Origin: Candidatus Omnitrophota bacterium
GTDB lineage: Bacteria > Omnitrophota > Gorgyraeia > Velamenicoccales > JABMQK01
Direction: 5' to 3'
Assembly: GCA_028711115.1 (NCBI GenBank)
Contig: JAQTSV010000001.1
Location: 710,032 to 774,031 of the forward strand
Length of the DNA: 64,000 nt
The notes below the pieces were generated by a model that had not been told where the DNA came from, searched no databases, and worked only from the letters and a program-made list of their open reading frames with translations. Both the position numbers and the translations under genes were made by a program. Below, piece by piece: positions 13,230-28,945 of this stretch. Within the stretch, counting starts at the first letter, position 1, and each line of letters opens with the position of its first letter.

Positions 13230-14501
13230 ATGGAAACTTATGATTTAGTTATTATTGGCGGTGGTTGGGCAGGATTTAATGCTGCGCTGGAAGCAAAAAA
13301 ACTGGAAAAAAAAGTTTGCTTAATAGAATGCAGCCAAATCGGCGGCACCTGCCTTAATCAAGGTTGTATACCCACAAAGGTTCTGACAAATTTTGCAAAA
13401 AAGACTTCCGGCGGTTTATCGCAGGGCCTGTCTTTGTTCAAAAAAGAAAAAGAAAACACCGTATCCACGTTAAAAAATGGGATGGAATTTATGCTTAAGT
13501 CCCAGAAGATAGATTTTATCCGGGGGACGGCAAAGATTATTTCCCAGGATAAAGTACTTATTAAAGAAGAAAAAGAAGAAATCGGAGCAAAGTTTATTTT
13601 AATAGCCACAGGTTCAAGACCAAAAGACCTGCCGTTTTTAAAGTTCGACCACAAGCGCATTCTATCCAGCGATGATATTCTGGAATTGGATTCTTTGCCC
13701 GGCAATTTACTGATAGTGGGCGGCGGGGTTATCGGTTGTGAATTTGCCTGCGCCCTGAATAAATTGGGCAGCAAAGTTACCATCGCAGAAATTCTGGACA
13801 GACTGGTATTTATGTTTGACAAAGATATTTCGCAGAAATTAGAGCAGGTTTTCAAAAAACTAGCCATAACAGTAAACACCGGATATGATATTAAAGATAA
13901 AGATTTAAGTTCATATGATAAGATACTGCTTTGCGTGGGCAGAGAGGTAAATTTCAATGAGCTATTTGAATCAAAAGCTGGCGTAGAGACTGATAAAAAC
14001 GGTTTTATCAGAGTCGACGATAAATTAAAGACGTCAGTTTCCCGTATCTACGCAGCAGGCGATTGCACCGGCGGACTTCAGCTTGCCCATGTTGCCAGCT
14101 ATGAAGGAAGAATGGCGGTAAACAATATGTTTGGCAAGCCCAGAAGCGTTGATTATTCTGCGGTGCCGAGTTCTGTGTTTACCAATCCTGAATTGGCGCA
14201 GGTTGGTATGAACCAAGAAGAAGCCAGAAACAAAGTCAAAAATACAAAGATTATTAAGAAATTCTTTTTATCCGTCGGTATGGCGCACATAATTAAGGAG
14301 ACAGACGGTTTCCTTAAGCTGATTATAGACAGCGATAACAATACCATATTAGGAGCCGGTATTATAGGGCCGCAGGCCACTGAGCTGATCAATACTTTAA
14401 CTGTGGCTATAAAATATAAACTTACCTTAGATGATCTCAAGGATTTAATTTTCGCCCACCCCAGTATCTCTGAAATTTTTACAGAGACAATCCAATCTTA
14501 A
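13230..14501 (+). CDS. Dihydrolipoyl dehydrogenase-like pyridine nucleotide-disulfide oxidoreductase
   Basis: 423 aa; GGGWAG FAD motif, redox-active GGTCLNQGCIPTK and a C-terminal HPSISE. Confidence 0.82.
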   Translation: METYDLVIIGGGWAGFNAALEAKKLEKKVCLIECSQIGGTCLNQGCIPTKVLTNFAKKTSGGLSQGLSLFKKEKENTVSTLKNGMEFMLKSQKIDFIRGTAKIISQDKVLIKEEKEEIGAKFILIATGSRPKDLPFLKFDHKRILSSDDILELDSLPGNLLIVGGGVIGCEFACALNKLGSKVTIAEILDRLVFMFDKDISQKLEQVFKKLAITVNTGYDIKDKDLSSYDKILLCVGREVNFNELFESKAGVETDKNGFIRVDDKLKTSVSRIYAAGDCTGGLQLAHVASYEGRMAVNNMFGKPRSVDYSAVPSSVFTNPELAQVGMNQEEARNKVKNTKIIKKFFLSVGMAHIIKETDGFLKLIIDSDNNTILGAGIIGPQATELINTLTVAIKYKLTLDDLKDLIFAHPSISEIFTETIQS

Positions 14502-15164
14502 ATGTATTTATCCGTTATTGATTTAGGCAGGGTTTCCTTTAAAGAGGCATTTTGGAGACAAATCCAGCTTCACAGGGAAATTTTAGAGGACGATGCCTGC
14601 CGCAGCCACACAATTATTTTGTGTGAACATCCTCATACAATCACCACAGGCAAGAAAGTCAATGCAGAGAATCTCCTGGACTACAAATTTATTAAAGATA
14701 ATAATGTTGATTTTGTGGTGGGAATAAACAGAGGTGGCGATATAACCTATCACGGCCCGGGGCAACTCATGGGTTATTTGATATTCGATTTAAGAAAGCT
14801 CAACAGAAATCTGGGCGGCTTTTTAAATAAAATAGAAGATGTGATTATTAAAACCATTACTGCATTTAATATATCCACATACACCAAGAGCGGTTTTCGC
14901 GGCATCTGGGTAAATGAACAAAAAATAGCTTCCATAGGTATCGGCGTGGATAGATGGGTTAGCCTCCACGGATTTGGTTTAAACGTCAGTACTGATTTAA
15001 GTTTCTTTGATATAATCAAGCCTTGCGGAATGGATATAAAGATGACATCTATGAAAGAACAATTAGCCAGACAAGTCGACATAAATCTAGTTAAGGAAGA
15101 ATTAGTAAGGCAGGTATGCGATATTTTTAAATTAGAATCTTCAAGAGAGCATGCGTTTGTATGA
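14502..15164 (+). CDS. lipB: Octanoyltransferase (lipoyl(octanoyl) transferase)
   Basis: 220 aa; RGGDITYHGPGQL and the PCGM catalytic Cys region. Confidence 0.88.
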   Translation: MYLSVIDLGRVSFKEAFWRQIQLHREILEDDACRSHTIILCEHPHTITTGKKVNAENLLDYKFIKDNNVDFVVGINRGGDITYHGPGQLMGYLIFDLRKLNRNLGGFLNKIEDVIIKTITAFNISTYTKSGFRGIWVNEQKIASIGIGVDRWVSLHGFGLNVSTDLSFFDIIKPCGMDIKMTSMKEQLARQVDINLVKEELVRQVCDIFKLESSREHAFV

Positions 15165-15190: not shown

Positions 15191-15421
15191 ATGGCCAGTG
15201 TAGTTTTACCGGAATTAGGAGAAGGTATTGAAAAAGCAACAGTTTCATATTGGCATTTTGAAGTAGGCAAGGAAGTAAAAGAAGGAGACGAATTAGTGGA
15301 AATGGCCACTGATAAAGCAGTTTTCAATGTTCCGTCCCCAATTACAGGCATATTACAGGAAAAATTAGTAGAAGAGGGTAAAGAAGTAAAAGTAGGCGAA
15401 GCCCTGGCAGTTATTGAATAA
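15191..15421 (+). CDS. Stand-alone E2-type lipoyl-attachment domain protein (76 aa)
   Basis: PELGEGI and the MATDKA lipoyl-lysine motif. No catalytic E2 domain is attached. Confidence 0.8.
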   Translation: MASVVLPELGEGIEKATVSYWHFEVGKEVKEGDELVEMATDKAVFNVPSPITGILQEKLVEEGKEVKVGEALAVIE

Positions 15422-15571: not shown

Positions 15572-15600
15572 TTGACAATAGATACCTTTAGATATATATT
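15572..15600 (+). promoter_or_regulatory. Sigma70-like promoter TTGACA-17-TATATT, followed by three ATTGT repeats (15608, 15615, 15625)
   Basis: TTGACA at 15572-15577, a 17-nt spacer and TATATT at 15595-15600, about 55 nt upstream of ATG 15657. Confidence 0.55.
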
Positions 15601-15656
15601 TATAGATATTGTAGATTGTGTAGGATTGTATTTAATTTGAGCTGGGAGGGAAGTTT

Positions 15657-15896
15657 ATGGCCAAGAAAACCAAAGAAATTTTGAATGCAAAAGACGTAGC
15701 TGATTACCTGAATGTGCATCTATTTACAGTACATAAATATGCACGTGAAGGTAGGATTCCTGCATTCAAAATCGGGGCTGATTGGCGTTTCCACCGTAAA
15801 TCCATAGAAAAATGGATTAAGGAGAAAGAGCAGAGCAATGTGGAAACAGGCAATTCAGCCAAGCAGAAAAAAGAAGCCGGACTCTTTAAAAGTTAA
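15657..15896 (+). CDS. Excisionase-family (MerR-superfamily) helix-turn-helix DNA-binding protein
   Basis: LNAKDVADYLNVHLFTVHKYAREGRIPAFKIGADWRF resembles the excisionase-type HTH pattern. Confidence 0.7.
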   Translation: MAKKTKEILNAKDVADYLNVHLFTVHKYAREGRIPAFKIGADWRFHRKSIEKWIKEKEQSNVETGNSAKQKKEAGLFKS

Positions 15897-15921
15897 TCTT
15901 AGCTAGAGGCACTTACAATAT

Positions 15922-17172
15922 ATGAAACCAGCAAAAAAGAGAATCGTTATAACAGGCATAGGTATAATTACTTCCAACGGCATAGGTAAAGATGAATTCT
16001 GGAAGAATTTAGAGAAAGGCGTTTCCGGAATTAAACAAGTCAGCCTATTTGATACAGGCAATTTAAAAACACACACAACCGGCGAAATAAAGGATTTCGA
16101 TGCCGCAAAATACCTGGGGGAAAAAGGTTTACGTTTGTTGGATCGCACTACCAAAATTGTCAATGTGGCAGCAAAATTTGCTTTAGATGATGCAAATTTA
16201 AAAATAGATGAGTCCAACACAAATGAGGTAGGCGTGGTTTTAGGCACGACATTAGGAAGCGTCTGGAGTATAAGCGAATTTGATAAAACTTCTTTAAGGG
16301 AAGGCCCGCGCGGCGTAAATCCGGCGCTGTTTCCCAACACAGTAATCAATTCTCCGGCCAGCCAGATTTCAATCCGTTTTGTCATAAAGGGATTTAATAC
16401 TACCATCGCCACAGGTTTTACGGCAAGCCTGGATGCTTTACGCTATGCCTGTGATTTTATTCAGCTAAACCGCGCAAAGGCAGTAGTGGTTGGCGGCGTG
16501 GAAGAATTATGCATCCAGACATATCTGGGTTTTTATAAATTAAAATTTTTAGCCGGTTCCAAAGATTCGGATTTGGAGTTGTCTTGTCCTTTTGATAAAC
16601 GAAGAAATGGTATTATTTTTGGCGAAGGCGCTTCTATGGTTGTGATTGAGGATTTGGAGAGCGCCCAAGCCAGAGGCGCAAAAATATATGCAGAGATTTT
16701 GAGTTTCGGGTCTTATTTTGACCCGTACAGGATTAATAAATATAATCGCCTCGGCCCAGGCATACGCGCAGCCATGCGTTCAGCTTTGGAAAATGCACAG
16801 TTAACGCCACGGAATATTGATTATATCTGTGCAAATGCAAATTCCACAAAAGAGGCAGATTTGATTGAGGCCGAGGCGATTAAGGATGTTTTTGGCGACC
16901 AGGCAAAAAAGGTGCCTGTAAGCTCAATAAAGTCAATGGTTGGCGAATCATTCAGCGCCTGTGGCGCGTTGTCTTTAGCTGCTTCTCTGGGGGCGATAGA
17001 AAATAAATTTATTCCTCCTACGATAAATTATAAAGAGCCTGATGCAGAGTGCGACTTGGATATCGTGGCGAATAAATCCAGAAAGAAAGAATTAAAGAGC
17101 GTATTGATTAATACATTCGGCCCAAGCGGGACGAATACGTGTGCAATAATAGGAAAGTTCAGTAAAAATTGA
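15922..17172 (+). CDS. Beta-ketoacyl synthase-like protein lacking the Cys-His-His triad (chain-length-factor-like partner)
   Basis: Thiolase-fold KS of 416 aa. By hand alignment to FabF motifs, IATGFTAS replaces IATACTSG, CANANST replaces NAHGTST, and KSMVGES replaces KSMTGH. Confidence 0.85.
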   Translation: MKPAKKRIVITGIGIITSNGIGKDEFWKNLEKGVSGIKQVSLFDTGNLKTHTTGEIKDFDAAKYLGEKGLRLLDRTTKIVNVAAKFALDDANLKIDESNTNEVGVVLGTTLGSVWSISEFDKTSLREGPRGVNPALFPNTVINSPASQISIRFVIKGFNTTIATGFTASLDALRYACDFIQLNRAKAVVVGGVEELCIQTYLGFYKLKFLAGSKDSDLELSCPFDKRRNGIIFGEGASMVVIEDLESAQARGAKIYAEILSFGSYFDPYRINKYNRLGPGIRAAMRSALENAQLTPRNIDYICANANSTKEADLIEAEAIKDVFGDQAKKVPVSSIKSMVGESFSACGALSLAASLGAIENKFIPPTINYKEPDAECDLDIVANKSRKKELKSVLINTFGPSGTNTCAIIGKFSKN

Positions 17173-17184
17173 GCTTTTAATTTT

Positions 17185-17925
17185 ATGTTAAAAAATAAAA
17201 TCGCAATAGTCACTGGCGGAACACGCGGAATAGGCAGGGCAATTGTATTGGCTTTGGCAAAACAAGGTGTAAAGGTGGCATTTAATTATTTAAAGAGCGA
17301 TAAGGAGGCAAAAGAAGTTCTTAAAGAAGTCAGTGATTTGGGTTCCGAGGCATTGAGTTTTAAATTTGACGTGCGGGATTTTAATTTAGCCAAAGAGTTC
17401 GTCGAGAAAGTAAAAGAATATTTCGGAGGATTAGATATATTGGTTAATAATGCAGGTATAATCAAAGATAAGGCGCTTATGTTAATGGAAGAAAATGACT
17501 GGCGCGAGGTTATTGATACCGACCTTACGGGTTATTTTAATTTAACCCGGGCCTGTATCGTGGGATTATTGAAACAGAAATCAGGAAACATTGTAAATAT
17601 TACCTCAGATAGCGGTGTTAGTGGTACTTCCAGGCAGACAAATTATTCTGCTGCCAAGGCCGGGATAATCGGTTTTACCAAATCTCTGGCAAAAGAAGTG
17701 GCAGGTTACAATATCAGGGTAAATGCCGTGGCAGCAGGTTTTATTGATACACAGATGACACAGAATCTAAAACCAGATTATAAAGAAAAATTAAAATCCT
17801 TGATTCCTAAAGGTGAATTTGGCAAACCGCAGGATGTGGCTGGTGCGGTTTTATTTTTGCTTAGCGATGCAGCAGATTACATTACAGGCCAGGTATTACG
17901 TGTAGATGGCGGAATGGTAATGTAG
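17185..17925 (+). CDS. 3-oxoacyl-ACP reductase (SDR, FabG-like)
   Basis: TGGTRGIGRA, NNAG and YSAAKAG motifs. Confidence 0.9.
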   Translation: MLKNKIAIVTGGTRGIGRAIVLALAKQGVKVAFNYLKSDKEAKEVLKEVSDLGSEALSFKFDVRDFNLAKEFVEKVKEYFGGLDILVNNAGIIKDKALMLMEENDWREVIDTDLTGYFNLTRACIVGLLKQKSGNIVNITSDSGVSGTSRQTNYSAAKAGIIGFTKSLAKEVAGYNIRVNAVAAGFIDTQMTQNLKPDYKEKLKSLIPKGEFGKPQDVAGAVLFLLSDAADYITGQVLRVDGGMVM

Positions 17926-17937
17926 GAGGAGGAGACA

Positions 17938-18180
17938 ATGCCGAATATTGAACAGGAAATTCGTGAGATAATTGCAGAGATTATCGAGAAAAAGCCCGAA
18001 ACGATAACTGGCGACGCTAATTTGTTTGAAGATTTGGGTGCGGATTCAATGATGGCGCTGGAGATTCTGGCTGCGCTTGAGAAAAAATATAAAGTCGTTA
18101 TTCCCGAAGACAAACTTACGCAATTGACGTCATTACGTAAAATTATGGAGCTGGTGGAAACCTTAAAGAAAAAAAGGTAG
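17938..18180 (+). CDS. Acyl carrier protein (specialised, basic C-terminus)
   Basis: 80 aa; phosphopantetheine site LGADSM and a KKKR C-terminal end. Confidence 0.85.
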   Translation: MPNIEQEIREIIAEIIEKKPETITGDANLFEDLGADSMMALEILAALEKKYKVVIPEDKLTQLTSLRKIMELVETLKKKR

Positions 18181-18190
18181 GTGCCAATAT

Positions 18191-18652
18191 ATGGAAAATC
18201 AAATCTTGGAGATTGAAGATTTAAAAAGGATACTTCCTCAGAGGTATCCTTTTTTAATGATTGACAGAGTGATTTACTCGGGCCAGGACAAAGTTGTGGC
18301 CTTAAAGAACGTGAGTGTTAACGAAGGATTTTTCGAAGGGCACTTTCCCGACGAGAAAGTTATGCCGGGCGTATTGATTATTGAAGCAATAGCCCAAACA
18401 GGGATTGTTTTGGTCCATAACGTTAAGTCTAAGGAAAAGAAGATAGACAAAGATAAAAAGCGTATTTATTTTTTAGGCGGAATTAATAAAGTAAGATTTT
18501 TCCAGCCGGTCAAACCCGGCGATCAGCTAAAGATTGAGGTAAAACCCGTAAAGCTCATCTCAAATATTGGTATGATTTGCGGAGAGGTTTTTGTCAAAGA
18601 CAAGAAAGTCGCGCAAGCGGAATTGTCGTTTAGCATGAAAGAAATCGATTAA
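18191..18652 (+). CDS. 3-hydroxyacyl-ACP dehydratase (FabZ-like hotdog)
   Basis: RYPFLMIDRV, HFPDEKVMPGVL and IEAIAQ motifs. Confidence 0.9.
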   Translation: MENQILEIEDLKRILPQRYPFLMIDRVIYSGQDKVVALKNVSVNEGFFEGHFPDEKVMPGVLIIEAIAQTGIVLVHNVKSKEKKIDKDKKRIYFLGGINKVRFFQPVKPGDQLKIEVKPVKLISNIGMICGEVFVKDKKVAQAELSFSMKEID

Positions 18653-18679
18653 AAAGTTAATGGAAAGTCCGATTTAAAC

Positions 18680-18740
18680 GTAACCAAAAGTAACTTATGG
18701 TAACAAAAAATAGTTTTGCGAATTAGTAACCCATAGTAAT
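18680..18740. repeat. Helically phased GTAAC/GTAAT pentamer array in the fabZ-like/KS intergenic gap
   Basis: GTAAC at 18680, 18690, 18700 and 18726, and GTAAT at 18736 (indexed by hand). The spacing is 10 bp within each subgroup. Confidence 0.5.
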
Positions 18741-18750
18741 TTTTAAAACA

Positions 18751-19965
18751 ATGAAACGAGTTGTAATTACCGGCTTAGGCGTTGTGAGTTCAATCGGAAT
18801 AGGCAAAGACGAGTTCTGGTCGAATTTGATTAAAGGCAAATCCGGAATTTCCAAAATAGAGTCTTTTGATACCACTGGTTATCCTACGCAATACGGCGGG
18901 GAGATAAAGAATTTCAAATCAGAAGAATTTATCAATAGGCGCAAAGTTAAGTCGTTAGGACGAGCTTCTCAGCTCAGCATAGCCGCTGCTAAATTAGCCC
19001 TCCAGGATTCCCACACAGAGATAAAAGAAATTAAGAATAGAAATTTCGGTGTTTGTGTAGGTACAACTATGGGCGAGACTCAATTGATGGAGGAGATGGA
19101 TTCGACCTGGATTAAAAGCGGAGAAGACAAGGTAAAATTTTCTTTGGTATATTCTTTTCCCACCAATATTATATCCGCAAATTTAGCTTTAGAGCTAAAA
19201 GTCAATGGCGATAACTTTATGATGCCTACTGCCTGTGCTGCAGGTAATTATTGCATTGGTTATGGAGCAGATATAATAAGGAGCAGCAAAGAAACAAATA
19301 TTGTGTTAGCCGGAGGGACAGATGCTTTTTCTAAGGTTGCTTATACTGGTTTTAACCGCCTCTATGCTATGGCTCCGGAAAAATGCCAGCCATTTGATAA
19401 AAACAGAAAAGGAATGTTGCTTGGCGAAGGCGCGGCAATTTTGGTTTTAGAATCATTAGATAGCGCGTTACAAAGAAAAGCCAATATCTATGCAGAAATT
19501 TTAGGTTATGGTTTAAGTTGCGATGCTCATCATATGACTCAACCCTTAGAAGAGGGCATTGCAAAATGTATGTTAAAGGCAATGAATGAGGCAGGCATTG
19601 GTGCAGGTGATGTAGATTATATCAGCGCCCACGGAACAGGAACTCCGCAAAACGATAAAATAGAGGTTGCTGCTCTAAAGAAAGTCTTTGGTAAAAGATA
19701 TAAAAAGATTCCGGTATCATCCATTAAATCAATGCTCGGCCATACAATGGGTGCAGCTGCGGCAATGGAGGCAATTGCTTGTTGTTTGGTTTTAAAAGAA
19801 GGCATTCTTCCACCGACTATAAATTATGAAATCCCCGATCCGGAGTGTGATATTGATTGTGTGCCGAATAAGGCAAGGAAACAGAAGGTTAATATTGTGC
19901 TTAACAACTCTTATGCATTTGGTGGGAATAATGCGTGTTTGGTACTGAGGAAATACAATGTTTAA
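18751..19965 (+). CDS. Beta-ketoacyl-ACP synthase (FabF-like, catalytically complete)
   Basis: PTACAAG (Cys), SAHGTGT (His) and KSMLGHTMGAA (His) are all present. Confidence 0.92.
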   Translation: MKRVVITGLGVVSSIGIGKDEFWSNLIKGKSGISKIESFDTTGYPTQYGGEIKNFKSEEFINRRKVKSLGRASQLSIAAAKLALQDSHTEIKEIKNRNFGVCVGTTMGETQLMEEMDSTWIKSGEDKVKFSLVYSFPTNIISANLALELKVNGDNFMMPTACAAGNYCIGYGADIIRSSKETNIVLAGGTDAFSKVAYTGFNRLYAMAPEKCQPFDKNRKGMLLGEGAAILVLESLDSALQRKANIYAEILGYGLSCDAHHMTQPLEEGIAKCMLKAMNEAGIGAGDVDYISAHGTGTPQNDKIEVAALKKVFGKRYKKIPVSSIKSMLGHTMGAAAAMEAIACCLVLKEGILPPTINYEIPDPECDIDCVPNKARKQKVNIVLNNSYAFGGNNACLVLRKYNV

Positions 19966-21604
19966 TAATATTCATTTAAATCCATTTGCCATTTCTAATT
20001 TATTGATAGTTTTGACTTGTTTTCCACTGGCTATAGTAATATTCATTTACGGAAAAACAAAGTTAAGCAAAATATATTGCCTGCATGTTATTTCTCTTGG
20101 AGTATGGGGTTTCGGTGCTTTTTTTGCTTCCTCAATTATAGTTTCGAATATTTCTTATATTTGGTGGTTAATTGCTTATTCAGGCGTTATTATCATTCCT
20201 GTCTTTTTTCTGCATGTAGTTTGTATTTTATCTAATAGATTAAAAAATCCGCTTTTATTATTCAGCTATATTCAAGCAATAGTCTTCCTGGTATTAAATT
20301 TTATGGGTTTAATTTTTAAAGAAAATAAATTTATGTTTAATTCTTTTTATTATGCTCAAGGAAACTTTTTGCATTATGTTTCATTCTTTATTTGGAGCAT
20401 CATCGTTATTACTGAATATTATTTATTAATAAGACTAAATTTCAGAAATAAAAATAGATCTTTTATGATTTTATTTTTAATAGCTACCATAGGCTATGGC
20501 GGCGGATTAATGAATTTCTTTCCAGCTTTCGGTTTCAATATTTACCCTTGGGGCAATTTCACGGTTCCCATATATCTTATTGTAATAACTTGGGCAATAT
20601 TTAAGTATCAAGTTTTTGAAGTCAATGTAGCATTTCAAAAAAGTTTTATTTATTCAATTCTAATTGCTTTAATCACTGCTACTTATTTTATTTTCGTCTT
20701 TTTAGCCGAGAAACTTTTCCAAGGCATGGTTGGGTATACTTCGTTGTTTATCAGCATTATTTATGCTTTTGTAATTGCTTTATTTTTTAATCCTGTTAAG
20801 AACAAGATTCAGTATTTTGCGGATAAGATTTTCTTAGGTAAAACTCCTATTCAAATTGCCAAAGAAAATGAACTCTTGCGTCAGGAGCTTTTGCGTGCAG
20901 AAAAGTTAAAGACAATTGCAACCTTTGCTTCCGGAATGGCACACGAAATTAAAAATCCTTTAACAGCCATAAAGACATTTAGCGAATATTTACCACAAAA
21001 AATCGGCGATAAAGAATTTATGCAAAAGTTTTCCCATATTGTCAGTTCTGAGGTAGAGAAAATAGATGATTTAGTCCACCAATTACTTGATTTTTCCAAG
21101 CCAGCACCTTTACAATTAAAGGAAGCAGATATTCATAGGCTTATTGATGATACGCTTGAACTATTAAGCAGCCAGTTTATTAAATATAAAATTAATGTTA
21201 CAAAAGATTATTGTGATTACAAGATGATTGCAGTGATAGATACACAGAAAATGAAGCAGGTGTTCTTAAATCTCTTTCTCAACGCCATCGAAGCAATGCC
21301 TGCCGGCGGCAATCTTACGATTACCATCAGGGTTAACAGTGAGCAATTAACAGACAACAGTAAGCAGGTGACTGCACAGACTCGCAGAAATTTTATTGAA
21401 ATTTCTGTGAGCGACACTGGCTGCGGAATTTCAGACAAAGATATGCCGCACATCTTTGAGCCATTCCATACAACTAAGGAAAAAGGAAGTGGATTGGGTT
21501 TGTCTATAGTTTATAATATTATCAAAGAACATAAAGGAAGCATTAAAGTAAAAAGCAAGCTTAAAGAAGGCACAAAGTTTATTATTGAGTTACCAAAAGC
21601 GTAA
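19958..21604 (+). CDS. Sensor histidine kinase with a polytopic 7TM-type N-terminal domain
   Basis: About 290 aa of TM helices, then H-box SGMAHEIKNPL and an HATPase region (DTGCGI, GSGLGLS). The start overlaps the KS stop (ATGTTTAA). Confidence 0.88.
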   Translation: MFNNIHLNPFAISNLLIVLTCFPLAIVIFIYGKTKLSKIYCLHVISLGVWGFGAFFASSIIVSNISYIWWLIAYSGVIIIPVFFLHVVCILSNRLKNPLLLFSYIQAIVFLVLNFMGLIFKENKFMFNSFYYAQGNFLHYVSFFIWSIIVITEYYLLIRLNFRNKNRSFMILFLIATIGYGGGLMNFFPAFGFNIYPWGNFTVPIYLIVITWAIFKYQVFEVNVAFQKSFIYSILIALITATYFIFVFLAEKLFQGMVGYTSLFISIIYAFVIALFFNPVKNKIQYFADKIFLGKTPIQIAKENELLRQELLRAEKLKTIATFASGMAHEIKNPLTAIKTFSEYLPQKIGDKEFMQKFSHIVSSEVEKIDDLVHQLLDFSKPAPLQLKEADIHRLIDDTLELLSSQFIKYKINVTKDYCDYKMIAVIDTQKMKQVFLNLFLNAIEAMPAGGNLTITIRVNSEQLTDNSKQVTAQTRRNFIEISVSDTGCGISDKDMPHIFEPFHTTKEKGSGLGLSIVYNIIKEHKGSIKVKSKLKEGTKFIIELPKA

Positions 21605-21606
21605 AA

Positions 21607-22724
<1,118 letters not shown>

Positions 22725-22728
<4 letters not shown>

Positions 22729-24179
22729 AAGAAAAATACGATACGGTGATTATTGGAGCAGGGATTGGGGGATTGATTTGCGGTTGCTATTTATCCAAAG
22801 CAGGACTGGATGTTTTAATAATAGAGCAACAAAACAAACCTGGTGGATACTGCGTTTCATTTAAAAAAGGGGAGTTCAATTTCGATGCTGGCGGTCATTA
22901 TTTAGGAGGAGTACGAAGAGGAATTTTAGGAAAGATTTTGGAAGAATTAGATTTAAAGAGTCATATAAAATATAAACAATTCGATCCTTCAGAGAAAATC
23001 ATCTTGCCGAATAATATGCTTTATCTAAGAGCAGATCCACGCGATACAATAAGAGAATTTAGGAAGAACTTTTCAAAAGAAAAAATAAATATTGATAATT
23101 TCTTTAAATTTATCATGCAGAAAAATTTTCTAGATATTTACACAAAAGTAAAAAAAACTACCTTTAAAGAAGTAGTGGATAGTTTTTTTGAAAGTAATCA
23201 ATTAAAAGCAACTTTAGGAGCTTTTTTATTCAATAGTGGGACACCACCAGGCAAAGCAGCTGCGTCGCCGGCCATTGTTTTATTTCGCCAGTATTTATTA
23301 GATCCAGGCTATTATCCTTCCGGTGGCTTTCAAAAATTTCCTGATGTGTTAGCTGAGAATTTCGAAAATAATGGTGGGAAAATTATATTATCAAATAAAG
23401 TGAATAAGATTATAACCGATTCTAATAAAATTAAAGGAGTGATTATTGATGGCAATAGAGCAATTGGCGCCAATAATGTCATATCTAATGCTGATGCAAC
23501 TGAAACTTTTAAAAAAATGTTAGATATACCAAATAGAGAGGCAACTATTGTAGATAAAATGATTCCCTCTCCTTCCATGTTTATATTATATTTAGGACTT
23601 AATATAAATTTAAGAGAAAAATTGAGAGAGAGTTGTAATATTTATTATTTTTCTACCTATAATATAGACGAAATTTTCTCAAATCTAGATAAAATTTTAA
23701 TGATTGATAAAATACCAAGTATATTTTGTGTTCCTATTTCTTTGCATAATTACTCTAATGAATTTAAAAAAGGTTCGATGGTAATCTTGACTATTGCACC
23801 TTACAAATCTTGCAAATTTTGGGATAAAAATAAAGATAGTATCAGCGAGAGAATAGTAAGTCTTGCTAATAAATTAATACCTGGTTTATTGAGTTCTATA
23901 GAGTTGCAAATTTGTGCTACGCCTATCACTCTGTCAAAATATACCTTAAATAGAGAAGGAGCTTTTGCAGGATGGTTACCTATTTTATCACAAACAAAAG
24001 CTGATCTCTTACCGCAAAAAACTTCTATCGACAGACTTTATATTGTTGGACAATGGTGTACTTCCAGTTACCTTCCTTCTGGTGGAATAGCTAATGTAGC
24101 CCTTACAGGTAGAAGGGTTGCTAGATGGATTATAGAAGATTCAAACAGAATATGGAAATATCCTGAACTTTATTTATAA
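22725..24179 (+). CDS. FAD-dependent oxidoreductase of the phytoene desaturase / RetSat (CrtI-like) family
   Basis: 484 aa; the N-terminal VIIGAGIGGL dinucleotide motif with a GGY..S continuation and a C-terminal GQW...GGI region are typical of the family. Confidence 0.78.
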
Positions 24180-24187
24180 TAAATAAC

Positions 24188-26365
24188 ATGAATCTATATT
24201 CAATACCTTTATTTATTATCTCATTGGTTTTTATAGTGTTGGGAATCTTTGTTTATTTAAAAAATAATAAAAGGATTCTTAATAAACTATTTTTATATCT
24301 AAGTATCGCTGGTGGTATTTGGTTATTCTCTTACTCTATGGCATATAATAGTAGTCTTAATGAATTAGCACAATTATGGTTAAAAATTGGTTATAGCGGA
24401 GTGGTTTTTATTGCAATAACAGGATTTAATTACACTGTGGAATTTTTAAAAATAAAGAGAACCAAAAAACTTGTTTATATATGTTATTTTATAGGTTGGA
24501 TCTTTGTGGTTTTAATATGGATAAGCAGATGTTTAATACGCGGTATTCATAATTTCTTTTGGGGATATTATCCACAAGCAGGTAACATCCATCCAATTTT
24601 TTTAGTATTTTTTATAGGTATAGTGAGTTTTTCTCTCATGCTTTTATGCTATTCTTTGTGGTTTAAAAGTAAAAAATCTACTCCATTTGAAAGAGCTCAA
24701 ATTAAATATGTATTTCTAGCTTTTTTATTTTATAGTTTTGCCTCTGTCGATTTTCTCCCTAATTATGGAATAGAAATTTATCCTTTTGGTTATATCCCTA
24801 CATTAGTATTCATTCTGATTATAGCTTATACTATTATTAAATATAGGTTAATGGACATCACCATTGCAATTACCCGTACGGGAATTTTTATTGCTGTCTA
24901 TTCATTAGTTTTAGGTACTCCATTTATTATTGCCTATTCTTTACGACCTTATTTATTAGGTTTCTTTGGGGATAAATGGTGGTTCGTACCTATGGGATTG
25001 CTTACTGTTTTGGCAACCGTAGGTCCTTTTATATATATTTATATCAATACAAAAGCAGAGGATAGGTTACTTCGTGAGCAACGTCAGTATCAGAATACTC
25101 TAAGGCAGGCATCCAGTGGTATGATAAGGGTGAGAGAATTAAATAGATTGCTTAATTTAATAGTTCATGTTGTGACAAAAACTGTTAAACTTGAATTTGC
25201 AGCTATCTTTCTTCTAAATTCAGAGAACAATCAATACGTAATGGTAGCCAAGAGAGATTCTTCAGTCTTGTCTAAAAGTTTTAGTTTAGATATTAATTCT
25301 TCGCTTATAAAACAGCTGCATTCAAAAAGAGAGCCTCTGGTTTATGAGGAAATACAACTACAATCACAAGATAGTTCCTATGATGTAAAGTTAGCCTCTT
25401 TAGAAAAACAACTGAAAGAACTACAAGCTGCTGTGGTGGTTCCCAGTTTTGTAGGTAATAAATTATTAGGCCTTATTGTCTTGGGCAAGAAACTTTCCGG
25501 TAAGATTTATTCTCAAGATGACTTAAATGTATTTTCGGTTTTGGCTAATCAGGCAGCTTTAGCTATAGAAAATGCCCAGTTTTACGAGGATGTAAAAAAG
25601 ACACAGGAACAGTTATTCCAGGCAGAAAAAATGGCTACTGTCGGAACAATGGCTGACGGCCTTTCGCATCAGATAAATAATCGTTTTCAGGCTTTATCTT
25701 TGATTGCCGGAGATTCTCTGGATATTCTGCAGTCTCTGGATATGTCTAAAAGTTCTTCAGAATTTAAAGATGTCTTGGAGCAGTTAAAATATGCATTGCA
25801 AAGAATACAGACCAATGTTATGCAGGGCGGCGATATTGTCAAAGGGCTTTTGAAATATTCCCGTCCCGGGCCAAAAGGATTTGAGCCGGTAGATTTCAGT
25901 AAAATTGTCGAAGGTGCTTTGGAAATGGTGCAATATAAAGTGCGGCTGCAGGATTTAGATATAGAAAGGCAAATCCCCGGCGATCTGCCTCAGATAAAAT
26001 GCAACCTGACCCAGATGGAAGAGGTGTTTTTTAATCTCATCGATAATGCTTACGACGCCATTAAAGAGAGAAAAGAAGCCTTAAAAGACTCAAGCTTCAG
26101 AGGCAAGATTGCAATATCTGCAATACAAAAAGATGAAAGCGTCTGGATTGTTTTTCAGGATAACGGCATAGGTGTCAAAGACAGGGACAAGGCCAGTTTA
26201 TTTACTCCATTTTTTACTACCAAGGCCACCAGCAGAAAAGGCACAGGTTTGGGCCTATACGTTATACAAAAAATAATAGGTTTTCATAACGGCACAATTA
26301 GTGTAAACTCTACATATAACGTAGGCACGAAATTTGAAATACTATTACCGCTTGCTAATAAGTAA
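24188..26365 (+). CDS. Sensor histidine kinase: 7TM-type N-domain, GAF, HisKA and HATPase
   Basis: The N-terminal TM region is paralogous to 19958..21604. It also has a GAF-like segment (LLGLIVLGKK...ALAIENAQFYE), H-box DGLSHQINN, and DNGIGV/GTGLGL. Confidence 0.88.
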   Translation: MNLYSIPLFIISLVFIVLGIFVYLKNNKRILNKLFLYLSIAGGIWLFSYSMAYNSSLNELAQLWLKIGYSGVVFIAITGFNYTVEFLKIKRTKKLVYICYFIGWIFVVLIWISRCLIRGIHNFFWGYYPQAGNIHPIFLVFFIGIVSFSLMLLCYSLWFKSKKSTPFERAQIKYVFLAFLFYSFASVDFLPNYGIEIYPFGYIPTLVFILIIAYTIIKYRLMDITIAITRTGIFIAVYSLVLGTPFIIAYSLRPYLLGFFGDKWWFVPMGLLTVLATVGPFIYIYINTKAEDRLLREQRQYQNTLRQASSGMIRVRELNRLLNLIVHVVTKTVKLEFAAIFLLNSENNQYVMVAKRDSSVLSKSFSLDINSSLIKQLHSKREPLVYEEIQLQSQDSSYDVKLASLEKQLKELQAAVVVPSFVGNKLLGLIVLGKKLSGKIYSQDDLNVFSVLANQAALAIENAQFYEDVKKTQEQLFQAEKMATVGTMADGLSHQINNRFQALSLIAGDSLDILQSLDMSKSSSEFKDVLEQLKYALQRIQTNVMQGGDIVKGLLKYSRPGPKGFEPVDFSKIVEGALEMVQYKVRLQDLDIERQIPGDLPQIKCNLTQMEEVFFNLIDNAYDAIKERKEALKDSSFRGKIAISAIQKDESVWIVFQDNGIGVKDRDKASLFTPFFTTKATSRKGTGLGLYVIQKIIGFHNGTISVNSTYNVGTKFEILLPLANK

Positions 26366-26420
26366 TTTTTTGTCGTCAGCATTTATTACATAAATTAGGA
26401 AAACAAAGCGAGGTGAGAAG

Positions 26421-26789
26421 ATGCCAAAATTATTAATCGTTGATGATGAAATGGATGTGCGTGAATTCGCCAAGAGCTTTTTCAAAAGGAGAAAGATTGA
26501 CGTGGTGACAGCGGCCAGCGGAGAAGAAACTCTTTCCATGCTGGAGAAAGAAATGCCTGATTTGATAATTCTGGATATCCGCTTGGAAGGAATGGACGGC
26601 ATCGAAACCTTAAAGAGGATGCGCCAGATGGGAAATAAAACCGACGTAATTATGGTTACAGGAGTGGACGAAAAAGAAACTATGGATAAGGCAAAGGAAT
26701 TAGGCGCTATTGATTATATACACAAACCGCTTATTCTGGATGAATTGGAAAAGGTTGTTTTGAAACGTTTAATTAATCCAGGAAAATAA
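26421..26789 (+). CDS. Single-domain response regulator (CheY-like receiver)
   Basis: LLIVDDE, DLIILDIRLEGMDG and a conserved K in IHKP. Confidence 0.88.
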   Translation: MPKLLIVDDEMDVREFAKSFFKRRKIDVVTAASGEETLSMLEKEMPDLIILDIRLEGMDGIETLKRMRQMGNKTDVIMVTGVDEKETMDKAKELGAIDYIHKPLILDELEKVVLKRLINPGK

Positions 26790-26804
26790 AATAACCAGGA
26801 CGCC

Positions 26805-27980
26805 ATGAAGATTAATTACAAAAAAGAACTGGAAGATGCAGCGCGCAAGATGATTCTTGTGCACAGGCCAAAGACGTTGATTCAGTTAATTGTCAGGATG
26901 ATTGTGCACAAAGTCAAGGTGCGCCACGCAGGCATTCTTCTTTTTAACCAGAAATTAAACAGCTATATATTGACTGTTTCCCGGGGGAGGATGGGTTTAA
27001 AAATTCCTTCGGGTTTTATCCGCATTGATCCTGATAATGCCATGATAAGGTTCTTTACAAATAAACACAATTATCAATATATAGACGGCGGCGCCTTAGT
27101 CTATAGCAAAATAGGTAAAATTCTGAAAAACAGGCGTTCGCTCAGTAAACACAAGGATTTAAAAGAAACTCTTGTGGCTTTAAGAAATCAGATGAATTTA
27201 TTCGAGGCAGTTGTATGCATACCCAGTTATTTTCAGGATAAATTATTGGGGATTTTATTTTTAGGGAAAAAGATCTCCGGAAGGCATTTTCACCGCGACG
27301 AATTAGACTTTTTCATCGCCTTGGCCCATGATGTGGCTATGGCCATACGCAATGCCCAGCTGTTTGAGGAATTACAGGAACAAATCGAACGCAATAAGCG
27401 CATGTTTTTAGAAACCACCAAAGCCTTGGCTAGCACAATCGACGCCAAGGATCATTATACCCATGGCCATACGGAAAGGGTGACGCAGGTCAGCCTAGCC
27501 ATAACCAAGAAATTGATAATTACAAACCGCATAGATGTGGATTCTGCCTTTTTGGATGATTTAAATATCGCTGCCTTATTGCATGATATAGGAAAGATTG
27601 GCGTTCCGGAGAATATTTTAAATAAGAAGGGTGAGCTTAACGATGAAGAGAGAAGGAAGATAAATGAGCATCCTCTGATTGGAGCCGGAATTATTGAGCC
27701 CATTGAGGATTTGAAGAGAGCGATTGACGGCGTCAAGTATCACCACGAACATTTTGACGGGACAGGCTATCCCGAAGGCCTGAAAGGCAACCGTATCCCT
27801 CTGATTGCTGCGATTATTGCCGTGACGGATTCCTATGACGCCATGACTACCAATCGTCCTTATCGCCCAGCGCTGAATAAAAAAGAGGCGGTTGAGGAGA
27901 TACGTAAATTTAGTGGAGTTCAGTTTCATCCTTTAGTAGTTAAGGCTCTTGTGGAATTATACGAGGAGGGTGGCCTCTAG
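26805..27980 (+). CDS. GAF-domain HD-GYP phosphodiesterase (c-di-GMP turnover family)
   Basis: HGHTERV, LLHDIGKIGVP and HHEHFDGTGYPEGL motifs. The GAF segment resembles that of the upstream kinase. Confidence 0.86.
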   Translation: MKINYKKELEDAARKMILVHRPKTLIQLIVRMIVHKVKVRHAGILLFNQKLNSYILTVSRGRMGLKIPSGFIRIDPDNAMIRFFTNKHNYQYIDGGALVYSKIGKILKNRRSLSKHKDLKETLVALRNQMNLFEAVVCIPSYFQDKLLGILFLGKKISGRHFHRDELDFFIALAHDVAMAIRNAQLFEELQEQIERNKRMFLETTKALASTIDAKDHYTHGHTERVTQVSLAITKKLIITNRIDVDSAFLDDLNIAALLHDIGKIGVPENILNKKGELNDEERRKINEHPLIGAGIIEPIEDLKRAIDGVKYHHEHFDGTGYPEGLKGNRIPLIAAIIAVTDSYDAMTTNRPYRPALNKKEAVEEIRKFSGVQFHPLVVKALVELYEEGGL

Positions 27981-27992
27981 GATTTCTGAGGC

Positions 27993-28352
27993 CTAAATAT
28001 TTCTTTCCACGCTTTTGAGTATTTCTTTTGCCGCAAACGGTTTCACGATATAATCTACTGCCCCTGCATTTATCGCTTCCGTAGCAGTATCTACGCTCTT
28101 ATATCCGGTAATAATTATAACCTTTAAATCAGGTCTTTTTCCTTTAATCTTTTTTAAAATATCCAGGCCGCTCATTTTGGGCATCTTTATGTCTAATAAT
28201 GCAAGATCAAATTTTTCTCCACCTTCAAGAAGGCACAAACATCCCTGCCCATTGTCACAAAAAGATATATCATAATTATCTTTTAAAATTAAATTCAGTG
28301 ATTCCCGGATACCGACTTCATCATCACAAATTAAAATTCTTTTTTTAGACAT
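27993..28352 (-). CDS. Single-domain response regulator (receiver)
   Basis: ILICDDE, DLALLDIKMPKMSG and DYIVKPF motifs. Confidence 0.86.
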   Translation of the reverse strand: MSKKRILICDDEVGIRESLNLILKDNYDISFCDNGQGCLCLLEGGEKFDLALLDIKMPKMSGLDILKKIKGKRPDLKVIIITGYKSVDTATEAINAGAVDYIVKPFAAKEILKSVERNI

Positions 28353-28387
28353 TAGATACTCCTTTCTTTTGATTCAGAAGTTTTGTC

Positions 28388-28945
28388 CTATAAAGCTGCC
28401 GGGCTGCTTATTACCAAGCATTTTGCCGGTTTCTTACCTATATTTATAAAACGATGGGGGAGAGAAGACTTAAAATACAAACTAGTTCCTTTCTTTAATT
28501 CATACTGTTTGTCTTCAATATCTATATGAATCTGGCCTTCGGTGCAATAGACAAATTTCTCAGTGCCTGCGGTATTTTGTTCCAGATGAGTTTTGCCTTG
28601 AGGCTCGAGTATGAGGAGCTGAGGCAACATACTATTTCTTTGCGCATTCTTAGTCAATATTACGGATTTAGCCCTTTCATCATAAGAAAATATTTCCGTC
28701 TCATTGGTGGTTTTTTCACTCAACGTTGTTATTTCTTCTTTGGGAATGTCCAACCCTTCATACAAATCTTTCAGATTAAGATTCAAAGCTTCGCAGATTT
28801 TCATGTGTGTTTTTAGCGTTCCTTGAGTTATATCGTTTTCAATTCTGCTCAATGTGGCTTTGCCCACACCGGATTTTTTGGCAATGTCATCGAGTGTCAG
28901 ATCGCGAGATTTTCTTAATCTTTTAAGCTTTTCGCCGATATTCAT
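28388..28945 (-). CDS. XRE-family HTH plus cupin-domain transcriptional regulator
   Basis: An N-terminal LKRLRKSRDLTLDDIAKKSGVGKATLSRIEN region and a C-terminal cupin (GTSLYFKSSLPHRFIN). Confidence 0.85.
   Translation of the reverse strand: MNIGEKLKRLRKSRDLTLDDIAKKSGVGKATLSRIENDITQGTLKTHMKICEALNLNLKDLYEGLDIPKEEITTLSEKTTNETEIFSYDERAKSVILTKNAQRNSMLPQLLILEPQGKTHLEQNTAGTEKFVYCTEGQIHIDIEDKQYELKKGTSLYFKSSLPHRFINIGKKPAKCLVISSPAAL

Follow-up and report, generated by a model that had tools for sequence, protein, structure and literature searches.

A probable Omnitrophota version of the anammox-type ketosynthase/chain-length-factor fatty acid synthase, ending in a variable accessory island

Anammox bacteria carry a putative ladderane gene cluster, Cluster I (KustE3603-3608, with equivalents in Brocadia and Scalindua), that encodes the acyl carrier protein amxACP, the dehydratase amxFabZ, two FabF homologs (amxFabF2 and amxFabFmut), a "phytoene dehydrogenase" (PDH) and a B12 radical-SAM enzyme. 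Structures and biochemistry have been published for amxACP, amxFabZ and the amxFabF2/amxFabFmut heterodimer, amxFabFhet (PMC10139942; preprint 10.64898/2026.05.19.726425). The heterodimer, which resembles a ketosynthase/chain-length factor (KS/CLF) pair and was solved as PDB entries 9s5h and 9s5i, is claimed by its authors to contain the first chain-length factor in a fatty acid pathway; malonyl-amxACP is decarboxylated only by the complex, C6-C8 probes are favoured, and Phe135, Thr138 and Val139 of amxFabFmut line the tunnel, with mutations of Phe135 and Val139 shifting the chain-length preference (preprint 10.64898/2026.05.19.726425, May 2026). In the structural papers on these proteins Cluster I is described as unique to ladderane producers or restricted to them, and its peculiarities (a pair of FabFs of which one is dead, an unusual ACP and a FabZ whose tunnel is blocked) are interpreted accordingly. 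Here we describe a gene block from a metagenome-assembled genome (MAG) of Candidatus Omnitrophota that encodes clear homologs of five of the six Cluster I proteins. It occupies positions 15572-27980 of a 64,000-nucleotide stretch of contig JAQTSV010000001.1 (the window).

An earlier reading of the DNA letters (the original prediction) had presented the block as an orphan lipid cassette, related to type II fatty acid synthases (FAS) and polyketide synthases (PKS), with reductive release and no characterised pathway. It contains 12 open reading frames (ORFs), all on the plus strand, and annotation with Pfam and NCBIfam models and their cut-offs reproduced all twelve, with the same domains and coordinates. 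What the analysis shows is homology, signature residues, synteny and compositional heterogeneity, and the locus is best described as the Omnitrophota version of the amx-type KS/CLF FAS. We favour, with moderate confidence, an explanation in two parts, in which a core (15572-19965) acts as the main FAS, a variable accessory island (19958-27980) is appended to it, and ladderanes are not expected as a product.

The two ketosynthases of the core form a dead and active pair. In an alignment to E. coli FabF, with which KS1 (15922..17172, +) is 35% identical, KS1 has Phe, Asn, Lys and Glu (F-N-K-E) at the positions of Cys163, His303, Lys335 and His340, and KS2 (18751..19965, +) retains all four residues (C-H-K-H), which bears out the inactive/active, CLF-like pair that had been proposed. 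F-N-K-E recurs in 102 of the 121 sequences of the KS1-family alignment (KS1 family matches plus three references), and the catalytic Cys and both His are lost in all 121 except the active references, KS2 and E. coli FabF. Loss of the triad throughout the family argues that KS1 is a selected, catalytically dead subunit and not a decaying gene. Its top match in the PDB is chain C of 9s5h (409 bits); the dead-subunit chain of 9s5i is also matched, and the next-best entries after chain C are FabFs, every one at 287 bits or less. For KS2 the top match is chain B of 9s5h (504 bits), with chain B of 9s5i matched too, followed by Iga11 (351) and FabF (333). Both proteins fall below the strict TIGR03150 cut-off, and KS2 passes that of NF005589 (432.9 against 387). 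For each of the two, the orthologous clusters at 60-88% identity number well above one hundred, and nearly all of those with a label are from Omnitrophota.

For comparison with the anammox proteins, 42 Brocadiia loci were retrieved with the sequence of 9s5h chain C, rebuilt from the alignment, and the ORFs of Brocadia pituitae, Kuenenia hertensis, a Scalinduaceae MAG, Loosdrechtia and a deep Brocadiia MAG served as BLAST subjects. Over their full lengths, KS1 is 46-51% identical to amxFabFmut and KS2 is 54-56% identical to amxFabF2. A neighbour-joining tree of the KS proteins separates active and dead clades, each of which holds both Omnitrophota and anammox sequences; KS1 falls in the dead clade and KS2 in the FabF2 clade. 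The dead subunits of the two phyla have the derived His-to-Asn and His-to-Glu changes in common and keep the Lys. The triads of the anammox orthologs read V-N-K-E, V-C-K-E or E-N-K-D, and at the lost Cys, KS1 differs in having Phe where the anammox proteins have Val or Thr.

The tunnel residues picked out by the anammox structures and mutants are retained as well. F135, T138 and V139 are all unchanged in KS1; among its Omnitrophota orthologs, 118/118 have F135, 118/118 have T138 and 117/118 have V139, and the three residues are present in 5/5 anammox orthologs. In the active subunit the gate residue F394 is conserved, as are F203, M337 and A164, with F394 found in all 119 Omnitrophota orthologs. 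Two tunnel positions of the KS2 type depart from the anammox pattern: Met replaces Ala/Gly at position 110, and a small residue (Ser, Thr or Ala) replaces Ile at position 113. By these comparisons KS1 is the predicted ortholog of amxFabFmut and a putative chain-length-factor-like partner subunit, and KS2 the predicted ortholog of amxFabF2 and FabF of the phylum.

In an exhaustive search of 50%-identity representatives, dead ketosynthases of the x-x-K-E kind also form a large family, and one close stand-alone relative comes from Ca. Poribacteria. Many proteins of ~800-830 residues (P0363, P0365, P0367 and P0370, for example) fuse an active (C-H-K-H) and a dead KS with varied dead "triads", a single-chain version of a KS/CLF-like pair. 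In the Acidobacteria MAG RIFCSPLOWO2_02_FULL_61_28 (locus L055, 6633-9073), an active KS 52% identical to KS2 adjoins a dead KS (G-A-K-E) 38% identical to KS1, so such a pair occurs outside the Planctomycetes-Verrucomicrobia-Chlamydiae (PVC) group too.

The remaining core enzymes show the same affinity. The ACP (17938..18180, +; PP-binding 2.3e-16), which has a DSM phosphopantetheine site and a C-terminal KKKR, lies below the NCBIfam AcpP cut-offs (57.9 against 70.45; TIGR00517 missed). Its best PDB matches are the anammox ACPs 7qv0_D, 7auf_A and 9s5i_E (58, 55 and 54 bits), compared with 45 bits for E. coli AcpP, and it is 39-47% identical to amxACP over the full length. As amxACP is defined by a structural trait, a long 3-10 helix, the Omnitrophota protein is a putative carrier of the amxACP type. 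The 3-hydroxyacyl-ACP dehydratase (DH; 18191..18652, +; NF000582 FabZ 151.6 against a cut-off of 113) has amxFabZ (7qv0_A) as its best PDB match and is 42-48% identical to it at full length. Two signatures mark amxFabZ: Ile at position 69, where canonical FabZ has Gly, and a hydrophobic side chain (Val/Ile) at position 115, where it has Arg/Lys (PMC10139942). Both are present in the DH, as Ile69 and Ile115; when seven further DHs from Omnitrophota were compared, Ile69 was found in five and a hydrophobic residue 115 in six. FabG, the 3-oxoacyl-ACP reductase (17185..17925, +; TIGR01830 302 bits against a cut-off of 297.75), directly follows the dead KS in all examined Omnitrophota loci that carry one. 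BLAST located no FabG or reductase counterpart within 10 kb of the anammox clusters.

The likeness extends to gene order and to the flavoenzyme. In anammox loci annotated with Pfam the order is ACP-FabZ-FabF2-FabFmut-PDH-B12 radical-SAM, and the sub-order ACP-DH-active KS is common to both systems. PDH follows FabFmut in five anammox loci. The CrtI-superfamily flavoenzyme of our block (22725..24179, +; Amino_oxidase, NAD_binding_8) matches it over the full length at 32-35% identity (215-253 bits), with 45 invariant columns in the joint alignment. Thus the two systems have in common full-length homologs of five of six genes, the same dead and active KS clades, the H-to-N and H-to-E changes, the tunnel residues on both subunits, the amxFabZ signatures and a flavoenzyme that scores under the crtI_fam cut-off. 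They differ in that the Omnitrophota dead KS lies upstream and is accompanied by FabG, whereas the anammox dead KS is downstream of the active one. The Omnitrophota block also adds an HTH_17 regulator, seven-transmembrane (7TM) kinases and a thioester reductase, and it lacks a B12 radical-SAM gene. The anammox enzyme of that name (L014 12705-14165; B12-binding and Radical_SAM domains) has no tblastn match in the window, and none was seen in the Omnitrophota loci examined (L001, L004-L012); the sole radical-SAM ORF of the window lies ~29 kb away on the minus strand (56948-57910), beside a DUF4416 gene. Since this gene is missing, ladderanes are not predicted. The orphan status given in the original prediction has thus to be abandoned, since clear homologs of five Cluster I genes are here and structures and biochemistry are published. 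The correspondence with a characterised cluster covers those five genes and not the entire block.

In K. stuttgartiensis a second dead KS, Kuste2805, reads F-N-K-E and stands beside the FabF Kuste2804 and another B12 radical-SAM gene, and other anammox FAS clusters are syntenic with Deltaproteobacteria (Rattray et al., PMC2649909). Just downstream of the Cluster I radical-SAM gene of Brocadia pituitae there is a Pyr_redox_2/dihydrolipoyl-dehydrogenase-like gene (L014 14358-15791). It is 34% identical to the Lpd gene upstream of our block (window 13230-14501), probably a coincidence within a large family.

A survey of related contigs (loci labelled L001-L056), which had been suggested as a check, showed that the arrangement recurs in many of them and is therefore not due to chance. 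L004, whose KS1 is 86% identical, has the whole block with selfish genes inserted and with the flavoenzyme before the reductase. L005 (KS1 75%) has lipB-lipoyl-HTH-KS1-FabG-ACP-DH-KS2, followed by a methyltransferase and kinases, with neither reductase nor flavoenzyme. More distant loci retain parts of the core: KS1-FabG-DH alone beside riboflavin genes and DNA ligase in L006 and L007 (KS1 63-67%), KS1-FabG beside ATP synthase in L056, and KS1-FabG-DH-KS2 followed by pilin genes in L009. In L010 the dead/active KS pair, the DH and the ACP each occur twice, together with a flavoenzyme and one more KS, which is divergent. In L008, L011 and L012 the order is coaD-yceD-rpmF-plsX-fabH-fabD-HTH_17-KS2, then one or more 7TM kinases, a reductase or an extra KS, and the flavoenzyme, after which comes a 7TM-GAF kinase or, in L008, a 7TM-GAF-HD fusion; L012 has a receiver and an HD_5 protein as well. 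KS2 in these three loci, which tell the most of all, occupies the classical fabF slot of rpmF-plsX-fabH-fabD-fabG-acpP-fabF, with no other fabG, acpP or fabF there, and is accompanied by the HTH_17 gene and the downstream sensor/enzyme module.

Two observations concern these operons as such. Small selfish-looking genes (a GIY-YIG nuclease, 23S_rRNA_IVP four-helix-bundle proteins and nucleotidyltransferase pairs) lie repeatedly inside Omnitrophota fab operons (L004 12073-14837; L008 5892-6272 and 9583-9975; L010 5878-6123; L011 8686-9018 and 12287-12643; L012 12307-12663), often at the recurring junctions HTH/KS2 and DH/KS2. The expanded locus L010 (3792-14199), in which the dead/active pairs have the triads Y-C-K-E and F-N-K-E and the further KS is active, looks more like a specialised pathway.

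We consider the core probably the main type II FAS elongation operon of the organism, and across Omnitrophota the module seems to serve as the main FAS and probably as the sole one. The original prediction had argued against a housekeeping FAS II. Three lines of evidence point the other way and together make the main FAS II the most likely role of the core: KS2 orthologs follow rpmF-plsX-fabH-fabD directly, the KS1-FabG-DH trio lies among housekeeping genes, and the FAS KOs listed for three Omnitrophota genomes are single-copy. Furthermore, FabG, DH and KS2 score above the NCBIfam FabG, FabZ and FabF-subfamily cut-offs, and the 60-88% identity at which both KS families are kept across the phylum is of a housekeeping-like level. 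Copy numbers were taken from the "KO counts per genome" sheet (KO, KEGG Orthology) of Seymour et al. 2023 (Source Data Figs 3-5), as given there for Omnitrophota genomes 58, 231 and 221. Every FAS KO listed for these genomes has a count of 1: K00059 (fabG), K02078 (acpP), K02372 (fabZ) and K00645 (fabD) are listed in all three, K09458 (fabF) and K03621 (plsX) in genomes 58 and 231, and K00648 (fabH) in genome 221. In the same entries K00647 (fabB) is not listed, and the table contains KOs for plsX and plsC.

Several facts weigh against this reading. The cycle is incomplete, as no FabI, FabK, FabL or FabV was found in the 64-kb window or any related locus, and the KOs of these enzymes (K00208, K00209, K02371 and K10780) and the FabK-like K00459 are absent from the entries for genomes 58, 231 and 221; a recognisable enoyl reductase is apparently missing in Omnitrophota. 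The copy numbers come from three other Omnitrophota genomes and depend on KO thresholds; two of these genomes list an LpxC-FabZ fusion, so the DH is not the sole dehydratase. With the FabH of L008 as query, the protein of the host genome was not among the 120 matches listed, and a second canonical fabF/acpP/fabZ set in the host genome is possible. A crude net-charge proxy of the KS dimer interface missed the published description even for amxFabFmut and is uninformative for KS1 and KS2. Finally, the homologous anammox module coexists with a canonical FAS and prefers C6-C8 in vitro (preprint 10.64898/2026.05.19.726425; PMC10139942), a preference that fits poorly with C14-C18 membrane acyl chains.

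Some of the same facts favour what is essentially the model of the original prediction, a second, specialised FAS/PKS-like system beside a canonical FAS that makes dedicated short, medium or partly unsaturated acyl-ACP, with reductive release and modification by the flavoenzyme. The precedent is K. stuttgartiensis, in which Cluster I coexists with the canonical kustd1386-1391 FAS (PMC2649909), and both amxFabFhet and amxFabZ favour C6-C8 in vitro. A tunnel-restricting residue, Ile69, is present in the DH, the divergent ACP stays below the AcpP cut-offs, the thioester-type reductase is co-directional with no terminator between it and the core, and L010, with its two dead/active pairs, shows that duplication of the module for specialised use is possible. 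We nevertheless regard this model as rather unlikely, because KS2 stands at the fabF position behind plsX-fabH-fabD in three lineages, in which that operon holds no further fabF, fabG or acpP, the FAS KOs listed in the sheet are single-copy (fabG, acpP and fabZ in 3/3 genomes, fabF in 2), and the reductase and flavoenzyme are not conserved partners of a core that is itself conserved like housekeeping genes. Less probable still is a short-chain FAS that makes octanoyl-ACP for lipoate and feeds the LipB and lipoyl domain encoded upstream, as mitochondrial FAS II does. The Lpd-LipB-lipoyl domain-HTH-KS1 adjacency of the window, L004 and L005 suggests it, as do Ile69 in the DH, the C6-C8 preference of the anammox orthologs and Val139, which has been likened to the chain-length-restricting residue of the human mitochondrial KS (preprint 10.64898/2026.05.19.726425). 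However, lipB is adjacent in one clade, and elsewhere the neighbours are plsX-fabH-fabD, riboflavin or ATP synthase genes; a sole FAS would have to supply membrane acyl chains too, for which the KO table contains plsX and plsC; and the modelled amxFabFhet tunnel holds a C16 chain (preprint 10.64898/2026.05.19.726425).

The two explanations that look beyond ordinary acyl chains are very improbable. For a genuine ladderane or ladderane-like cyclised lipid pathway outside anammox bacteria one can cite the homologs of five of six Cluster I genes and the "ladderane" labels that antiSMASH puts on such Omnitrophota clusters. However, the window contains no homolog of the B12 radical-SAM enzyme, which alone among the Cluster I proteins is a plausible catalyst of cyclisation, and the host belongs to Ca. 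Omnitrophota and not to Brocadiia; reports of ladderanes are confined to anammox bacteria (PMC10139942). A cluster for a polyene pigment, whether of the aryl-polyene, the flexirubin or another highly reducing type II PKS kind, would share the Ape/Iga gene logic of a KS/CLF-like pair, ketoreductase, DH and ACP with no enoyl reductase. Iga11, the ishigamide KS, is the second-best PDB match of KS2, precomputed Pfam results include weak ApeP/ApeI-like matches on the DH, and FlxB is among the models that match FabG. Yet the FlxB score of 262 bits is below its cut-off of 340, and while the FabG, FabZ and FabF-subfamily models are passed, the PKS, Ape and Flx models all stay below theirs. In agreement with the original prediction, which had set the block apart from aryl-polyene clusters, Pfam annotation of the block gave no ammonia-lyase, adenylation or other aryl-loading (starter-activating) enzyme, thioesterase, acyl- or glycosyltransferase, LolA or MMPL export gene, and in relatives the context is one of housekeeping genes with plsX, fabH and fabD. 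The type II PKS KS/CLF systems (ActI; Iga11/Iga12; ApeO/ApeC) do resemble ours in pairing an active KS with a dead paralog that shapes the acyl tunnel and in having no enoyl reductase. They differ from it in that KS1 is of the FabF lineage and has Phe at the lost Cys, where aromatic CLFs have Gln, and in that our block has a primary-metabolism context and lacks cyclase, aromatase, loading and release genes.

If the core is the main FAS, its housekeeping role would be played as follows. We infer from homology with amxFabF2/amxFabFmut that KS2 and KS1 form a KS/chain-length-factor-like heterodimer, in which KS2 would decarboxylate malonyl-ACP and catalyse condensation and the helix-loop-helix of KS1 (F135, T138, V139) would form a wall of the acyl tunnel. 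FabG and the dehydratase would complete the cycle except for enoyl reduction, with FabH, FabD, PlsX and the enoyl reductase encoded elsewhere. The acyl-ACP produced would be supplied to PlsX/PlsY/PlsC, and octanoyl-ACP to the adjacent LipB. Like a canonical FAS II operon (rpmF-plsX-fabH-fabD-fabG-acpP-fabF plus fabZ and fabI), the system passes the FabG, FabZ and FabF-subfamily cut-offs, has KS2 at the fabF position after plsX-fabH-fabD in relatives, and has listed FAS KOs in single copy. Unlike it, the system has an obligatory-looking dead KS partner, which implies a heterodimer where FabF is a homodimer; a divergent ACP; a dehydratase with a bulky tunnel Ile and without the basic ACP-patch residue; no recognisable enoyl-ACP reductase; and, in this window, no linkage to plsX-fabH-fabD. 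It had been predicted that the block has no FabH, FabD or FabI, and indeed none of fabH, fabD, fabI, acc or plsX is among the annotated ORFs of the 64-kb window. In Omnitrophota the module is found within the plsX-fabH-fabD operon or next to it and probably serves as the primary FAS, whereas the anammox module is additional to a canonical one.

The island that follows has a different history. It begins with a 7TM histidine kinase (19958..21604, +; HisKA, HATPase_c and a weak HisKA_7TM match) and continues with a stand-alone NAD_binding_4/thioester-reductase-type short-chain dehydrogenase/reductase (21607..22728, +; NAD_binding_4 6.3e-55), the flavoenzyme, a 7TM-GAF histidine kinase (24188..26365, +; HisKA_7TM 2.7e-16, GAF, HATPase_c), a stand-alone response-regulator receiver (26421..26789, +; Response_reg 9.4e-30) and a GAF-HD_5 protein of HD-GYP type (26805..27980, +; HD_5 5.3e-37, GAF). 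Relative to L004, the closest relative, identities are 86% for KS1, 82% for FabG, 75% for the ACP, 73% for KS2 and 55% for the DH, and 48%, 40% and 38% for the first kinase, the flavoenzyme and the reductase. The GC content of third codon positions (GC3) is 0.35-0.46 in the core and 0.30, 0.17, 0.23 and 0.29 in four island genes, the first three values being those of the first 7TM kinase, the reductase and the flavoenzyme. The order of reductase and flavoenzyme is swapped in L004. The reductase is missing from L010 and L012, where a further KS, divergent and active, stands next to the flavoenzyme; a nitroreductase is added in L011; L005 carries a methyltransferase instead of the two enzymes; and L009 is devoid of both. 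We read 19958-27980 as a fast-turnover slot for lipid tailoring and signalling at the end of the fab operon, probably exchanged laterally.

This variability bears on the role that had been given to the reductase and flavoenzyme as release and modification steps of the pathway. Compositionally foreign, 38-40% identical to their L004 counterparts, swapped in order and replaced or absent in relatives, they are better seen as a variable add-on than as an obligatory release step; a fatty aldehyde or alcohol is possible as the product of an accessory branch only. The reductase passes NAD_binding_4 (186.5 against a cut-off of 20.1) and falls short of TIGR01746 (157.4 against 213.35). Its best PDB match is the reductase domain of MxaA (4u7w), terminal reductases of PKS and nonribosomal peptide synthetases are the top matches, and the translation shows the Rossmann TGxxGxxG motif and the catalytic YxxxK motif. 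At 22681-22719 a perfect microsatellite, (AAT)13, gives the reductase a C-terminal tail of 13 Asn; the tract could be prone to slippage and is consistent with the GC3 of 0.17.

The flavoenzyme scores 113.9 against the crtI_fam (TIGR02734) cut-off of 238.1 and reaches 81 bits to the CrtI structure 4dgk, and the profile of its family matches CrtI and CrtD structures over the full length. Every member examined, including anammox PDH and the other Omnitrophota proteins, is below the crtI_fam cut-off; the family, anammox PDH included, is a distinct branch of the CrtI superfamily. The anammox homolog Kuste3607, the Cluster I "phytoene dehydrogenase", failed to complement crtI in E. coli (PMC4790861). 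As to function, the island would most likely tailor part of the acyl-ACP pool, the putative substrate, by reducing it to aldehyde or alcohol and by altering its saturation in a flavin-dependent reaction, with sensors embedded in the membrane exerting control. A bolder idea, which we think unlikely, is that the amx-type heterodimer, ACP and Ile69 DH support the sole essential FAS of Omnitrophota, with the flavoenzyme or another oxidoreductase of the slot representing a new class of enoyl-ACP reductase or acyl-ACP saturase/desaturase, and that the anammox cluster is an ordinary PVC-type FAS module plus one B12 radical-SAM enzyme. The absence of the flavoenzyme beside the fab genes in L005 and L009, together with its faster evolution than the core, makes an essential role as enoyl reductase less likely.

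Between one and four HisKA_7TM-type kinases follow KS2 in L004, L005, L008 and L010-L012, and a protein of ~724 residues with the 7TM-GAF kinase architecture is encoded in L004, L005 and L010-L012. In L012 the 7TM-GAF kinase is also followed by a receiver, and L008 has 7TM, GAF and HD_5 fused in a 680-residue protein at the same position. The GAF-HD_5 protein is probably a cyclic di-GMP (c-di-GMP) phosphodiesterase output. In Bacillus subtilis, DesK/DesR exerts membrane-sensing control over an acyl-chain-modifying enzyme. The island is similar in that multi-transmembrane histidine kinases lie beside a putative acyl-chain-modifying flavoenzyme at the end of a lipid operon, which is an analogy only: its sensors are of the HisKA_7TM and GAF types, its receiver is without a DNA-binding output, and the output looks like HD-GYP. 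Elsewhere in the window there are a second GAF-HD_5 protein (62326-63378, -) and a CHASE2-GGDEF diguanylate cyclase (43252-44952, +). Two GAF-HD_5 proteins and a diguanylate cyclase suggest dense c-di-GMP signalling in a small genome.

The junctions within the block are tight. The 98-nt gap between DH and KS2 (18653..18750) and the 55 nt before the receiver gene are as originally predicted, but other gaps fall outside the range of 3-13 nt given for the rest: 25 nt between HTH and KS1, 15 nt between the receiver and GAF-HD genes, and 2 nt between the first kinase and the reductase. A promoter and terminator scan gave no convincing terminator inside the block and neither a convincing promoter nor a terminator in the DH-KS2 gap. 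At the same junction L004 has ~1.8 kb of inserted genes (nucleotidyltransferase, 23S-rRNA-IVP and others), which shows that it tolerates insertions. The block is bounded downstream by a receiver (27993-28352) and an XRE-cupin regulator (28388-28945) on the minus strand (27993..28945; Pfam), a syntenic boundary, as the same pair also closes the locus in L005 and L008.

At the other end, a sigma-70-like site, TTGACA-17-TATATT (15572..15600, +), is the best in the 14 kb scanned, with 11/12 consensus matches; its first position is the start coordinate of the block. Each of the five related loci examined (L004, L005, L008, L011 and L012) has a near-consensus TTGACAA...TATAxT ahead of its HTH_17 gene, and the site in the window is a candidate promoter at what is probably the start of the transcription unit. 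Lineage-specific short direct repeats follow it: Tandem Repeats Finder and the sequence itself give two, TGTAGATTG / TGTAGGATTG, at 15610..15629 (+), TGTAGNATTG occurs twice in the window (15592-15629), and L012 has TTAGGCTCA / TTTGGCTCA. The direct repeats between promoter and HTH start may act as an autoregulatory operator.

The first gene of the block encodes an HTH_17 (MerR/excisionase-type) DNA-binding protein (15657..15896, +; Pfam HTH_17 5.6e-15). A homolog (49-73% identity) stands directly upstream of KS1 or KS2 in L001, L004, L005, L008, L011 and L012, whatever else the operon contains, and the protein is likely a dedicated regulator of the fab operon. A mobile-element excisionase was considered and ruled out, given that in six loci the gene keeps its place, in synteny, at the head of the fab operon.

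Upstream of the promoter, directly after Lpd, lie lipB, for an octanoyltransferase (14502-15164, +; TIGR00214 145 against a cut-off of 83.55), and a gene for a 76-residue stand-alone lipoyl domain with a TDKA lipoyl-lysine motif (15191-15421, +). LipB and the lipoyl domain are consumers of octanoyl-ACP, and their adjacency to the block is limited to L001, L004 and L005. The lipoyl domain may be a lipoyl relay or carrier rather than part of an E2.

"Ladderane" biosynthetic gene clusters called by antiSMASH have already been reported in MAGs of several non-anammox phyla, Omnitrophota among them, from the Cariaco Basin (bioRxiv 10.1101/2022.12.20.521206) and a cenote (PMC11968836). The Omnitrophota loci so labelled are very likely of the same kind as this block. 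Those reports gave a rule-based label only; here the assignment is made by orthology, signature residues, plsX-fabH-fabD synteny, the missing radical-SAM gene and the variable island, and in the literature consulted we found no published analysis of orthology, signature residues or operon context for Omnitrophota. The comparison shows that the unusual FAS proteins of anammox bacteria are not specific to ladderane synthesis. The five amx-type proteins, down to the residues singled out by mutagenesis and structures, occur throughout a non-anammox phylum, apparently at the centre of its ordinary lipid synthesis, which leaves the B12 radical-SAM enzyme as the one truly ladderane-specific component of Cluster I, suggests that the C6-C8 preference seen in vitro may not reflect the physiological limit, and provides hundreds of natural heterodimer variants for comparison. 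Omnitrophota themselves would have an unusual primary FAS with a heterodimeric KS and no recognisable enoyl reductase, and their slot for lipid tailoring, hypervariable and linked to sensors, may be relevant to the surface biology of these ultra-small, possibly host-dependent cells. In genome mining, antiSMASH "ladderane" calls outside Brocadiia are best read as amx-type FAS and not as ladderane potential.

Two further features of the window are unrelated to the block. A 2524-residue protein (30040-37614, +) combines SpvB, TcdB_toxin_midN, FG-GAP, RHS-repeat and Laminin_G_3 domains in a Tc-toxin/Rhs-type polymorphic toxin architecture and is preceded by a Big_7 protein (29225-30034); giant ORFs are a noted feature of Omnitrophota (Seymour 2023 source data). 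Finally, a PilT-family type IV pilus ATPase gene (9670-10716, +) lies between genes for the large (8383-9633) and small (10713-11213) subunits of an aconitase/homoaconitase/isopropylmalate-isomerase-family enzyme, overlapping the small-subunit gene by 4 nt, and the same arrangement is present in L001, L004 and L005.

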